From positions 1 to 4,142 of the IMG/VR virus record IMGVR_UViG_2663763280_000002: a stretch of DNA of 4,142 nt. The stretch is one strand, 5' to 3'. A model generated the notes under the pieces. That model ran no database searches, was not told the DNA's origin, and saw only the letters and a list, made by a program, of their open reading frames with translations. This stretch comes from a virus (Duplodnaviria > Heunggongvirae > Uroviricota > Caudoviricetes). Below are positions 1-4,142 of the stretch, piece after piece. The translations under genes and the position numbers were made by a program. The first letter of the stretch is position 1; each line of letters starts with the position of its first letter.

Positions 1-1
1 G

Positions 2-433
2 GCTGCCGGAGGCGCTCAACAGGATGACGTGCTGATGTACGTGATGCTGTGGCGCATTGATGCCGGAGATTATGCAGGGGCGCTGGAGATCGGGCGTCAT
101 GCCCTGCGTCATGGCTGGGTGATGCCGCTGGGTAACCGCAACGTGCAGACCGTGCTGGCAGAGGAAATGGCAGACGCGGCGCAGAGCGCAATGCTTGCCG
201 CCACCGGCTTTGATGCCGATCTGTTGCTGCAGACGCTGGAGCTGACAGACGGTCTGGATATGCCGGACCAGTCACGGGCGCGTCTGCATAAAGCGATTGG
301 CGCTGTCCTGAGTGAAAGCAACCCGGCTTCCGCCCTTAATCATCTCAACCATGCGTTACAGCTCGATCCTCGCTGTGGCGTGAAAAAAGACAAACAGCAG
401 CTGGAGCGCAGACTGCGCAATGACAGCCGCTGA
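2..433 (+). CDS. M: Terminase small (endonuclease) subunit, gpM-like, C-terminal part; 5' end lies outside the window
   Basis: The reading frame is open from the window edge with no in-frame stop before TGA 431-433. The first start codon in frame is GTG 29, but the frame continues upstream, so the gene is 5'-truncated by the window. Assignment rests mainly on synteny: it sits immediately upstream of the L-X-lysis-R block, as in the P2 late operon (N-M-L-X). No diagnostic motif was verified. Confidence 0.5.
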   Translation, partial: AAGGAQQDDVLMYVMLWRIDAGDYAGALEIGRHALRHGWVMPLGNRNVQTVLAEEMADAAQSAMLAATGFDADLLLQTLELTDGLDMPDQSRARLHKAIGAVLSESNPASALNHLNHALQLDPRCGVKKDKQQLERRLRNDSR

Positions 434-528
434 CAGAACGTGCCCCCGCGCACGGGCGGCACGGGGTGGCGAAAGGCACTGCCACATCAAAACCCCGTCC
501 ACCGCCCTCTATTTCAGGAGAAAGCAGC

Positions 529-993
529 ATGAAGTTTGTTGCGCCAGAACAGGCACCAGAACAGGCGGAAATCATCAGGAATACGCCGTTCTGGCCTGAT
601 GTGGACCTGTCGGAGTTTCGCAGCGTGATGCGCACTGACGGCACGGTGACGCAGCCGCGTTTAAAGCAGGTTGCGCTGTCGGCAATTTCGGAGGTCAACG
701 CAGAGCTGTATGAGTTTCGCAGACGCCAGCAGATGCTGGGGTATGCCTCGCTGGCAGAAGTTCCGGCGGAACAGCTGGACGGCAAAAGTGAGCGCATTCA
801 GCACTATTTCAACGCGGTTTACTGCTGGGCACGCGCCATGCTCAACGAACGATACCAGGACTATGACGCCACGGCGTCCGGTGTGAAGCGGGGCGAGGAA
901 CTGGCGGAAGCAAGCGGTGATTTGTGGCGTGACGCCCGCTGGGCCATCAGCCGGGTGCAGGATGCGCCGCACTGCACAGTGGAGCTTATCTGA
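529..993 (+). CDS. L: Head completion/stabilization protein, gpL-like
   Basis: ATG 529 is preceded by AGGAG at 516-520 (8-nt spacer). The GTG at 466 used by the ORF track lacks an RBS. Stop TGA 991-993 overlaps the next start by 1 nt (ATG 993). 154 aa. Position between M and X matches the P2 order. Confidence 0.7.
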   Translation: MKFVAPEQAPEQAEIIRNTPFWPDVDLSEFRSVMRTDGTVTQPRLKQVALSAISEVNAELYEFRRRQQMLGYASLAEVPAEQLDGKSERIQHYFNAVYCWARAMLNERYQDYDATASGVKRGEELAEASGDLWRDARWAISRVQDAPHCTVELI

Positions 994-1196
994 TGAAAGT
1001 GCGTGCGCATCAGTATGACACGGTGGACGCGCTTTGCTGGCGTCATTACGGGCGCACGCAGGGGGTCACGGAGCAGGTACTGAAGGCAAATCCGGGGCTT
1101 GCCGAATACGGCCCCTTTTTACCTCACGGGCTGCAGGTGGAGCTGCCGGACATTCCGACCACCACCACCGTGCAGACCGTCCAGCTATGGGACTGA
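993..1196 (+). CDS. X: Phage tail protein X, gpX-like
   Basis: 67 aa ORF with ATG 993 and TGA 1194-1196. Same length class as P2 gpX. The sequence pattern (YGRTQGV...VLKANPGLAE...LPHG..VELPD) matches my recollection of the tail X family. Translationally coupled to L. Confidence 0.75.
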   Translation: MKVRAHQYDTVDALCWRHYGRTQGVTEQVLKANPGLAEYGPFLPHGLQVELPDIPTTTTVQTVQLWD

Positions 1197-1199
1197 ATT

Positions 1200-1415
1200 A
1201 TGACGCTTGAGCGAATCAGCGCCTTTATCACGTATTGCATCGCCGTCGTGCTGGCCTGGCTGGGCGATTTGTCCATCAAGGATGCCTCAACGCTGGGCGG
1301 TCTGATGATTGGTGTACTGATGCTGGCTATCAACTGGTACTACAAACACAAATCCTACCTGCTTCTGCGCGACGGGCAGATCTCGCGGGAGGACTATGAA
1401 TCCATCAATCGTTAA
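1200..1415 (+). CDS. Small class II holin, possible pinholin
   Basis: 71 aa. Two predicted hydrophobic helices (approx. residues 6-22 ISAFITYCIAVVLAWLG and 31-49 TLGGLMIGVLMLAINWYY) followed by a charged C-terminal tail (KHKSYLLLRDGQISREDYESINR). ATG 1200 lies 3 nt after the X stop. The 3' end overlaps the endolysin start by 20 nt. It occupies the holin position of the P2 lysis cassette. Confidence 0.7.
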   Translation: MTLERISAFITYCIAVVLAWLGDLSIKDASTLGGLMIGVLMLAINWYYKHKSYLLLRDGQISREDYESINR

Positions 1416-1908
1416 ACGCTGCCTTGTCGGGGCCGTGCTGGCTATTGCTGCCACGCTGCCGGGTTTTCAGCAGCTTCACACCTCCGTGGAGGGGCTGAAA
1501 CTGATTGCTGATTACGAAGGCTGTCGTCTGCAGCCGTATCAGTGCAGCGCGGGTGTCTGGACCGACGGCATTGGTAATACATCGGGCGTCATTCCCGGCA
1601 AAACAATCACGGAACGACAGGCAGCAGAAGGGCTGATCTCCAACGTGCTGCGTGTGGAGCGGGTACTGGAAAGGTGTGTGAAGCAACTGCCACCACAGAA
1701 GGTGTATGACGCTACGGTGTCGTTTGCCTTCAACGTGGGGACGGGCAATGCCTGCAGCTCCACGCTGGTGAAATTGCTCAATCAGCGGCGCTGGGCGGAT
1801 GCGTGCCGACAGTTGCCGCGCTGGGTTTATGTAAAAGGTGTGTTTAATCAGGGGCTGGATAACCGCCGTGCGCGGGAGATGGCCTGGTGTTTACAGGGAG
1901 CAAACTGA
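1396..1908 (+). CDS. K: SAR-type endolysin, T4-lysozyme-like (GH24) muramidase
   Basis: ATG 1396 is preceded by GGGAGG (1387-1392). 170 aa. After K7-R8 the N-terminus has a weakly hydrophobic Gly/Ala-rich segment (CLVGAVLAIAATLPGF) typical of signal-arrest-release domains. The lysozyme catalytic region is DYEGCRLQPYQCSAGVWTDGIGNT (Glu41 ... Thr56). Cysteines at positions 9, 43 and 50 match the pattern of P1 Lyz-like SAR endolysins. Confidence 0.85.
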   Translation: MNPSIVKRCLVGAVLAIAATLPGFQQLHTSVEGLKLIADYEGCRLQPYQCSAGVWTDGIGNTSGVIPGKTITERQAAEGLISNVLRVERVLERCVKQLPPQKVYDATVSFAFNVGTGNACSSTLVKLLNQRRWADACRQLPRWVYVKGVFNQGLDNRRAREMAWCLQGAN

Positions 1909-1909
1909 A

Positions 1910-2287
1910 ATGAAAAAGAAATTAATCAGCGGACTGTTTCTGATGTTATGGATGGCGCTGTTAATCGCAGCAATGGTGTATCCGCAGGGGATTTTTCCGG
2001 TACTGGCAGCGTCCGGCGTTTGGGTAGCCTGTTTGCTGACATGGGCGGTAATTCCGGTAGCACTGGCTGCGTTAATTAAGAATGGCCCGCTCTGGCAGGA
2101 GTTAAGGGCATCTTTACTGAAGACAATTACCCGAAAAGAAAACGTATTTATCAGTTGGGTGATGCGATTGCTGATTGTTGTAAGTCTCGCCTGGACGGGG
2201 TGGGCTATTACCCTGGTCTTTTATCTACTGACCGTTATTGCCTTCTGGATCACCCGTAATCAGATGGCGCAACAGGTAGCAGCATGA
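1910..2287 (+). CDS. lysA: LysA-like integral membrane protein, lysis-timing accessory
   Basis: ATG 1910 is 1 nt after the endolysin stop (TGA 1906-1908), with GGGAG at 1896-1900 (9-nt spacer). 125 aa with about four predicted transmembrane helices. Located between the endolysin and LysB as in P2. The GTG at 1838 in the ORF track would overlap the endolysin by 70 nt and has no RBS. Confidence 0.6.
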   Translation: MKKKLISGLFLMLWMALLIAAMVYPQGIFPVLAASGVWVACLLTWAVIPVALAALIKNGPLWQELRASLLKTITRKENVFISWVMRLLIVVSLAWTGWAITLVFYLLTVIAFWITRNQMAQQVAA

Positions 2288-2712
2288 ACCGGTTGCTGCT
2301 GGTTGTGCTGGCGTTATTACTGGCGGCGCTGGGCTGGCAGACGTGGCGGCTGGCTGATGCCAGCCAGACCATTAGCACGCAGGCAGACGAGCTGCAGAGC
2401 AAAAGCCAGGCACTGGCAAAGAGCAACAGCCAGCTTATCAGCCTGTCCATTCTGACTGAAACCAATAACCGGGAGCAGGCGCGGCTCTATGCCGAAGCAG
2501 AACAGACCAGCGCGCTGCTGAGACAACGACAACACCGGATCGAGGAACTGAAACGTGAGAACGAGGATTTACGCCGCTGGACTGATACTCCTTTGCCTGC
2601 TGACATTATCCGGCTGCGGGAACGTCCGACGCTCACCGGAGGTGCAGCTTATCGTCAGTGGTTGTCCGCGAGTGACACCGTGTCGGCTGGATCAGGCAGA
2701 GCCGCGCACTAA
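2284..2712 (+). CDS. lysB: LysB, inner-membrane spanin (i-spanin, Rz-like)
   Basis: ATG 2284 overlaps the lysA stop (ATGA). N-terminal transmembrane helix (LLLVVLALLLAALGW) followed by a Q/A/E/R-rich, coiled-coil-like periplasmic region. 142 aa. Contains the out-of-frame start of the lipoprotein gene lysC. Confidence 0.7.
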   Translation: MNRLLLVVLALLLAALGWQTWRLADASQTISTQADELQSKSQALAKSNSQLISLSILTETNNREQARLYAEAEQTSALLRQRQHRIEELKRENEDLRRWTDTPLPADIIRLRERPTLTGGAAYRQWLSASDTVSAGSGRAAH

Positions 2713-2845
2713 CGGTGATCTGAACGCGTTGTTGGATGAAACGGAGGCCGCCTGGGCGGTCTGTGCAGACAAAGTGGACATGATTATTGCGTGTCAGGAG
2801 CAAAACAGTGAACAAACCACAATCCCTGCGCCACGCCCTCAATAA
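2555..2845 (+). CDS. lysC: LysC, outer-membrane lipoprotein spanin (o-spanin, Rz1-like)
   Basis: GTG 2555 with GAGGAA at 2541-2546. Signal peptide MRTRIYAAGLILLCLLTLSG followed by the lipobox Cys21 (L-S-G-C); the residue after the Cys is Gly, consistent with outer-membrane sorting. Pro-rich C-terminus (TTIPAPRPQ). It starts inside lysB in another frame and extends 133 nt past the lysB stop, which is the overlapped spanin architecture. Confidence 0.7.
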   Translation: MRTRIYAAGLILLCLLTLSGCGNVRRSPEVQLIVSGCPRVTPCRLDQAEPRTNGDLNALLDETEAAWAVCADKVDMIIACQEQNSEQTTIPAPRPQ

Positions 2846-3239
2846 AGCGGTGCCTTATGTCCGCAATAACCCGGACAAACTGCATCTGTTTGTGGATAAC
2901 GGTTCGCTGGTTGCCACGGGGGCCAGCTCCATGTCGTGGGAGTACCGTTACACCCTGAACGCGGTGATTGAGGATTTCAGCGGCGACCAGAATCTGCTGA
3001 TGGCCCCGGTTTTGCTGTGGCTGAGGGATAACCAGCCCGATGCCATCAATAACCCGGCGTTACGGGAAAAACTATTCACCTTTGAGGTGGATATTCTGCG
3101 CAACGATGTCTGTGATATCAGCCTGAACCTGCAACTGACGGAGCGTGTGCTGGTCAGCACTGACGGTAGTGTGTCGAGTGTTGAAGCTATAGCGGAACCT
3201 GATGAACCTGAAGAAATGTGGACGGTGAAACGTGGCTGA
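2808..3239 (+). CDS. R: Tail completion protein, gpR-like
   Basis: GTG 2808 with AGGAG at 2796-2800 (7-nt spacer); the TTG at 2787 used by the ORF track is less likely. 143 aa. The N-terminus ([10 protein letters not shown]...[14 protein letters not shown]) resembles P2 tail completion protein R as I recall it. Stop TGA 3237-3239. The last few codons lie at or near the junction with non-phage sequence, so the integrity of the C-terminus is uncertain. Confidence 0.7.
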
Positions 3240-3244
3240 ACTGC

Positions 3245-3511
3245 AGACTGATGCACTCACTGGCGGTCACTGAACAACGCGCCAGCTTCAAAGCGTGGAC
3301 ATTACTGCTGGCAATCAGTGCCTTCTCGTTGTGTCTGCTGGGGACTTTCCTGGTGCGTTCCGGCGTGCTGGTATCGGTACACGCGTTTGCCTCTGATCCG
3401 GCACGCGGTATGTTTATCCTCGCCTTTATGGTACTGGTGATTGGTGGTTCGCTGCTGCTGTTTGCCGCACGTGGACACAAAGTTCGCTCACGCGTAAACA
3501 ATGCGCTGTGG
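3245..3511 (+). pseudogene. ccmF: Internal fragment of a cytochrome c maturation heme lyase (CcmF/NrfE family); no start codon context and no native C-terminus
   Basis: Translation [88 protein letters not shown] matches my recollection of the CcmF/NrfE region just after the Trp-rich WWD domain, including a His that would be the conserved periplasmic His. About 90 of roughly 650 codons are present. The frame ends in KTGT-stop at 3524-3526, which I do not recognise as CcmF. Boundaries are approximate (about 15 nt). Confidence 0.6.
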
Positions 3512-3613
3512 AAAACGGGCACTTAGCGTGGCAAATTGCGCTACCGGGGCACAACGCTGACGCAGCGTAGCGAGCTGTCCTTCCAGTTTTTCCAGCAGCA
3601 GGGCGGTTTTCAC
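3512..3613 (-). pseudogene. priC: 5' fragment (about 34 codons) of a priC-like gene (primosomal replication protein N'')
   Basis: The minus strand reads GTG (3613-3611) then [34 protein letters not shown], preceded by GAGGT about 5 nt upstream and an AT-rich TATCAT-containing region. This resembles the N-terminus of enterobacterial PriC from memory. The frame then runs into the ccmF-like fragment and stops (PQRIVYA-stop). Identification is less certain than for the other fragments. Confidence 0.4.
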
Positions 3614-3897
3614 GATAAGACCTCAATGAAAATGATAATTGTTATGCTAAAGTAGCCACTCTGTAAGCTGACAACACTCAATATGCAACGAATCATTTTA
3701 ATCATCATGTTGAACTGGTACAGGCAACCAGCGGCACGCTGATGATTTTGCGCCATACCGCACCGCTAAGTTCGGCTGATCGCGAAAAACTGGAACGCTT
3801 TTCGCATTCTGAAGGCCTGGATCTGTATCTCGCCCCCGATAGTGAGATACTCGAAACCGTCTCTGGTGAGATGCCCTGGTATGACTCAAACGGGTTT
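3614..3897. other. AT-rich non-coding spacer between the divergent priC-like and rluD-like starts; origin unassigned, possible promoter sequences
   Basis: No recognisable coding signal; the ORFs here are short and unrecognised. Local AT-rich stretch around 3620-3720 (e.g. TATCAT about 25 nt upstream of the minus-strand GTG). This may contain native upstream regions of the flanking fragments, or a further unrecognised fragment. Confidence 0.3.
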
Positions 3898-4002
3898 ATG
3901 GCACAACGAGTACAGCTCACTGCAACGGTGTCCGAAAACCAACTCGGTCAACGCTTAGATCAGGCTTTGGCCGAAATGTTCCCGGATTATTCACGTTCGC
4001 GC
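3898..4002 (+). pseudogene. rluD: 5' fragment (35 codons) of rluD-like 23S rRNA pseudouridine synthase D
   Basis: ATG 3898 followed by [35 protein letters not shown], which matches the N-terminus (S4-like domain) of E. coli-type RluD as I recall it. After codon 35 the frame continues as [16 protein letters not shown]-stop (4051-4053), which is not RluD and corresponds to the antisense of the next fragment. Confidence 0.6.
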
Positions 4003-4142
4003 CAATCGTTCCCTGGCCAGCAATCACTTTCGGATCATCGTAAGGTGGGATAAAAATACGACCTTCCATTTCGACAATTTCGCTCACTTTAGCGATAGTG
4101 TCGTTGAAATTATCACCATGCAGAACGACTTCTGCGGAGTAG
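4003..4142 (-). pseudogene. tdcB: Internal fragment of a PLP-dependent threonine/serine dehydratase (TdcB-like), running off the window end
   Basis: The minus strand from 4141 downward translates to [47 protein letters not shown], which matches my recollection of catabolic threonine dehydratase TdcB (fold-type II PLP enzyme). Homology ends at about 4003, where the rluD-like sequence begins. About 46 codons are present. Confidence 0.6.

Follow-up and report, generated by a model that had tools for sequence, protein, structure and literature searches.

A chain of five core-gene fragments at the end of a draft Escherichia coli prophage contig is probably a sequencing-library chimera

Bacterial DNA that is damaged or fragmented is known to give rise to chimeric reads as an artefact (PMC7548031). 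In library-ligation chimeras, unrelated fragments are joined flush and in random orientation, no recombination signals accompany the joins, and a typical read links two fragments. MDA with phi29 also produces artefactual joins of non-adjacent genomic segments; these arise by template switching and usually connect nearby, inverted segments via short complementary stretches. Wrong adjacencies may also enter a draft contig through de Bruijn or repeat-induced mis-assembly, which needs a shared k-mer (at least 21 nt) or a repeat at the join. Among genuine rearrangements, those due to IS elements or transposons are recognised by terminal inverted repeats, a transposase and a target-site duplication, and those at prophage attachment sites by an attL or attR boundary beside the integrase, frequently in a tRNA, with a duplicated core. 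Finally, E. coli is without Ku/LigD, and its native end-joining, with a frequency of about 1e-5, typically yields deletions; more than 30 A-EJ events all had 1 to 3 nt of microhomology at each of their junctions, and the model of the pathway needs 1 to 9 nt (bioRxiv 10.1101/605246; PMC4872102). These properties of A-EJ (Chayot et al. 2010) are taken here as summarised in those two sources; A-EJ, since it works without Ku/LigD, would be the sole native pathway able to make joins such as those described below.

The window, that is, the whole stretch of 4,142 nt analysed here, is identical to the entire contig CCCB01000610.1 of the draft assembly GCA_000945835.1, which is very fragmented (at least 610 contigs). 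Because the window is the whole contig, the patchwork that we describe is a contig end, namely the 3′ end of contig no. 610. A literature search for CCCB01 or GCA_000945835 found no paper naming either. By local alignment against loci from complete genomes, the last 895 nt of the window (3248-4142) resolve into five native E. coli segments, each with 99.6-100% identity, which follow a long prophage segment:

1-3247, plus strand: late region of a P2-like prophage, 3246 of 3247 positions identical to the E. coli A28 prophage
3248-3511 (264 nt), plus strand (sense): internal piece of ccmF, codons 259-346 of 647, 263/264 identical to ccmF
3512-3708 (197 nt), minus strand: priC/ybaN piece, 100% identical to strain C10
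3709-3896 (188 nt), plus strand (sense): internal piece of rlmD, codons 192-254 of 433, 100% identical
3897-4001 (105 nt), plus strand: rluD piece from 1 nt 5′ of the ATG to codon 35, 100% identical
4002-4142 (141 nt), minus strand (antisense): internal piece of tdcB, codons 166 down to 119 of 329, 100% identical

The five segments tile the tail fully, with no leftover bases, leaving no room for a linker, an adapter or a recombination site. The tdcB piece ends where the contig ends and is therefore at least 141 nt long, and the priC/ybaN piece is one contiguous native locus made up of priC codons 1-34 (minus strand), the intergenic region and ybaN codons 1-9 (plus strand). All parent loci (ccmF, priC/ybaN, rlmD, rluD and tdcB) are single-copy core genes that are scattered over the chromosome in both orientations, and each tail piece matches its own locus at 99.6-100% in essentially all of the 5,426 complete E. 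coli genomes. For instance, the 263/264 match of the ccmF piece recurs in more than 1,400 genomes, and the rluD piece is found at 99% identity or more in 5,425 of the 5,426. The match of the tail pieces to these loci far exceeds chance.

The preliminary description of this DNA, made from the sequence alone, had proposed a mosaic of about 900 nt composed of unlinked loci in mixed orientation, with sharp joins and no complete gene. The piece-by-piece matches bear this out, and the identities that it gave (ccmF, priC, rluD and tdcB) agree with the RefSeq annotation of the matching loci; as it had predicted, no single contiguous match of the tail region to one locus was found. The map itself needed correction. 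Where four switches had been counted, there are five joins (3247/3248, 3511/3512, 3708/3709, 3896/3897 and 4001/4002), of which only the one between ccmF and priC at 3511/3512 had been placed exactly. The boundary put at 3613/3614 is not a join but the native start of priC, from which the priC-ybaN intergenic region runs on to ybaN codon 9 at 3708. The rlmD piece had been overlooked and folded into rluD, and the join at about 3708 was missed with it, while the boundaries given as 3897/3898 (rlmD/rluD) and 4002/4003 (rluD/tdcB) were each one base off.

Two observations on the pieces concern single bases. None of 5,420 complete E. coli genomes has the synonymous G>A change (GCG>GCA) that the ccmF piece carries at position 3469; the isolate may have this SNP to itself, or the base may be wrong owing to sequencing or PCR in a chimeric tail of low coverage. 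The rluD piece begins exactly 1 nt before the ATG, with the other nine fragment ends at arbitrary intragenic positions. We treat this start as a coincidence, given a chance of roughly 3% that any of ten ends would fall so.

The start of the rluD piece does bear on one possible origin of the tail, contamination by an engineered construct of concatenated pieces (for example, a multi-target standard or a cloned fragment library) that was sequenced along with the isolate. Short head-to-tail pieces of unrelated genes look like synthetic multi-target standards, and a piece opening 1 nt before a start codon might be a designed one. Nevertheless, the arbitrary position of the remaining nine ends speaks against design, no join carries vector, linker, primer-like or restriction-site sequence, the concatenation occurs in no plasmid record, and a fusion of the construct to 3.2 kb of prophage would be needed in addition. 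We consider such a contaminant extremely unlikely.

More can be learned from the joins themselves. Bases shared at each join were determined by an ungapped three-way comparison of the left parent, the window and the right parent, with the following results:

Join 1, phage/ccmF, 3247/3248: flush, 0 nt shared
Join 2, ccmF/priC, 3511/3512: flush, 0 nt shared
Join 3, ybaN/rlmD, 3708/3709, ambiguous within 3704-3708: 4 nt shared (TCAT, 3705-3708)
Join 4, rlmD/rluD, 3896/3897: flush, 0 nt shared
Join 5, rluD/tdcB, 4001/4002: flush, 0 nt shared

The exact position of join 3 is ambiguous because TCAT is common to both parents. BLAST had suggested overlaps of 8-10 nt and 2-bp gaps at joins 1 and 2, but these are extensions of the alignment ends over imperfect similarity, and the ungapped alignment is flush at both. 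Under random blunt joining, the probability of sharing no base is 0.56 per join, and that of sharing at least 4 nt somewhere in five joins is 0.08; the observed series of 0, 0, 4, 0 and 0 nt is the pattern that chance would give under such joining. No restriction site and no 4- to 6-mer common to the joins was found across the five, which fits random shearing. We also considered restriction-site ligation, as in Hi-C/3C libraries or in Sau3AI or PstI clone chimeras. The PstI site at 3241-3246 belongs to the phage itself, and the joins do not have any enzyme site in common, so this candidate was rejected.

Set against the systems outlined at the beginning, most of the described routes do not fit these joins. 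MDA chimeras are similar in joining segments that are not adjacent in the genome, but here the loci lie megabases apart, their orientations are mixed, and four of five joins are without shared bases, so that the inverted, nearby segments and short complementary stretches of template switching are not seen. De Bruijn or repeat-induced mis-assembly would likewise produce a wrong adjacency in a draft contig, but instead of a repeat or at least 21 shared nucleotides the joins offer 4 nt at most and no repeats. Rearrangements caused by IS elements, transposons or prophage att sites are alike in that the mosaic adjoins a prophage and alters gene order. Here, by contrast, there are no IS ends, inverted repeats, target duplications, att core, tRNA or integrase, and all bases of the tail belong to core-gene loci, with no transposase among them. 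No direct or inverted repeat flanks any join, the only repeats being chance ones of 11-12 nt that all lie away from the joins, and no tRNA or Rfam family match was obtained in the whole window. The repeat search thus upholds the earlier observation that IS ends, inverted repeats, target-site duplications and att cores are lacking at the joins.

The position of join 1 argues in the same direction. In the gene order of positions 1-3247, the 3′ part of the terminase small subunit gene M is followed by L, X, holin, lysozyme, LysA, LysB/LysC and the tail-completion gene R, with names taken from the alignment to the A28 prophage and from the Pfam labels of the called genes. The tail had been described as lying directly downstream of the prophage. 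Join 1 is in fact inside the phage late operon, between R and S, 8 nt past the R stop codon. Gene S starts at 3232, overlapping the end of R, and is severed after codon 5, so that it reads MAELQ and then, across the join, TDALTGGH and a stop, versus MAELQKVDDWL... in the native protein. In A28, and in 10 of 10 other contexts sampled for the identical R protein, R continues into S, V, W and J. This is not an attL or attR boundary: there is no tRNA and no duplicated core.

Three further observations concern the prophage segment. Its sole difference from the A28 prophage over 3,247 nt is at position 1360 (T vs A), in the holin gene region (1200-1415). An Rz1-like gene, LysC (2597-2845), overlaps lysB and is embedded in it; it is annotated in A28 and several other genomes, and was left uncalled in the source contig. 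The R/S region (2900-3247) has 98.3% identity to P2-like phages of Klebsiella pneumoniae of about 33.4 kb (e.g., 4LV2017 and the Kp48xx series), which suggests, at the level of sequence, that near-identical late genes are common to both genera, in the E. coli prophage and in K. pneumoniae P2-like phages.

Could the structure nevertheless exist in the cell? One proposal is a double-strand break in the prophage between R and S whose repair by end-joining took up several short fragments of degraded chromosome, leaving a dead prophage with duplicated core-gene snippets. Eukaryotes are known to capture several fragments at breaks; the assembler crossed all five joins of this deposited contig, and a duplicated copy of the ccmF piece could have diverged to give the private G>A at 3469. 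A-EJ itself is comparable: in E. coli it can link ends that lack homology, and it needs no Ku/LigD to do so. As summarised in the sources named above, however, it proceeds with 1-9 nt of microhomology and with deletions, whereas here four of the five junctions are without microhomology and the result is an insertion of several fragments; four joins with 0 nt of microhomology are thus unlike E. coli end-joining. A RecBCD signature is not apparent either. Around its two breakpoints, native ccmF has four Chi sites (GCTGGTGG) over about 350 nt, all in one orientation; one lies 16 nt outside the breakpoint on the left, and there is no Chi near the other, non-ccmF breakpoints. We rejected Chi as a signature, since ccmF is simply rich in these sites and the other breakpoints have none nearby. 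No similar structure was found in the 5,426 complete genomes or the other collections searched, and a real insertion by end-joining is, in our judgement, very unlikely. Its more specific form, in which microhomology-independent end-joining sealed the break in the prophage and took up five or more short fragments from the degraded chromosome of the same cell as ‘filler DNA’, appears more doubtful still; if true, such capture would be of a kind not described for E. coli.

The searches for the structure elsewhere were broad. The pieces are present in all of the 5,426 complete E. coli genomes, at a median of five separate places, and in none of them (0 of 5,426) are any two of the pieces adjacent. 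The concatenation was not found in phage records or in plasmid records, join 1 was not found in IMG/VR, and a 26-nt pattern spanning join 4 was not found in GTDB species-representative genomes or in JGI metagenome contigs. By exact-product look-up across the whole collection, the chimeric 91-aa ORF with an ATG start (3251-3526) is on record in one contig only, CCCB01000610.1, and the same look-up returned no record for the 103-aa rlmD-rluD-tdcB chimeric ORF or the 102-aa ccmF ORF with a GTG start.

The same genomes bear on a true multi-breakpoint rearrangement, that is, shattering and reassembly with the pieces relocated and not duplicated. Only the mosaic itself favours it. At least ten breakpoints would be needed, disrupting five core genes that are kept in essentially all 5,426 genomes, and the excised pieces of 100-270 bp would all have to gather at one prophage site. 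Furthermore, the contig stops within the tdcB piece, which is what a second occurrence of that sequence in the assembly graph would lead one to expect. We know of no bacterial precedent for a rearrangement of the shattering type, and we find it hardly credible here. Of the two readings that the preliminary description had left side by side, a chimeric or artificial sequence is thus the one favoured by the contig end, the single record and the flush joins.

The mosaic is very probably an artefact of some kind and not a feature of the genome, and its best explanation, which we regard as likely, is that short sheared fragments were concatenated in vitro and that the product was read and then placed at the end of the contig. 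The isolate's own DNA would have been sheared at random, and short pieces of it (about 100-270 bp), among them one end of a prophage fragment, would have been joined at blunt ends while the library was being made or amplified. This concatemer would then have been sequenced as one template, and the assembler may have extended the prophage contig with it until the graph branched inside the tdcB piece.

Library-ligation chimeras are the described system closest to these observations. They are alike in the flush joining of unrelated fragments, in random orientation and without recombination signals, and also in fragments below the usual insert size, single occurrence and position at a contig end. 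Here, all bases are native, with segments tiling 3248-4142 at 99.6-100% and meeting flush without a linker, the loci are unlinked, orientation is random, microhomology is at the level of chance, and no independent genome or sample in the collections searched reproduces the structure. There is one difference: typical reads join two fragments, whereas here six segments are chained, the tail alone extending over 895 nt, so the concatemer would have to have been read as one long template or amplified before fragmentation. The tail is also nearly error-free, with one private synonymous change in 895 nt, and is therefore not a raw noisy long read.

The way in which the joins entered the contig can be narrowed further. 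Because they have no common k-mer, a mis-join in a de Bruijn graph is excluded, and, without k-mer overlap, the joins were either present in the sequenced molecules or else made by flush software concatenation. In the latter case there would be no physical chimera; a scaffolding, gap-closing or extension step would have butted low-coverage islands of 105-264 nt onto the prophage contig without Ns. The assembly is very fragmented, with its 610 or more contigs, and the piece sizes (264, 197, 188, 105 and at least 141 nt) resemble islands of one to a few short reads. As the joins lack common k-mers, a graph walk was not their maker, and a concatenation step is one possibility. However, scaffolders usually fill gaps with Ns, and there is no N in the window, paired reads would not tie random loci together several times running, and flush joining of unlinked islands is not a feature of any common pipeline known to us. 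We therefore hold this route to be unlikely. A physical in-vitro concatemer is most likely the leading sub-mechanism, with software concatenation of tiny low-coverage islands as a minor alternative.

We infer, then, that the joining occurred in vitro and that one long template carried all five joins. For the assembler to traverse five consecutive joins, one long chimeric template was needed, or a chimeric molecule amplified before fragmentation, and this is the weak point of the concatemer explanation: a real structure at full coverage would explain the five-join traversal more simply.

Gene calls on the chimeric tail have consequences for public records. Three have been made: a 91-aa CcmF fragment (3251-3526) with a weak match to PF16327, a 41-aa PriC N-terminus with a nonsense tail (3488-3613), and a 74-aa TdcB fragment (3917-4141). 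Three spurious proteins from the tail of CCCB01000610.1 are thus already in public protein collections. The chief value of the present analysis is accordingly a quality flag for about 0.9 kb of chimeric sequence in this contig of GCA_000945835.1. Short draft contig ends deserve suspicion in scans for rearrangements, prophage boundaries and novel ORFs. If the structure were true, it would be evidence for microhomology-independent, multi-fragment DNA capture at a break in E. coli, which would be new, but which is unlikely on present evidence.
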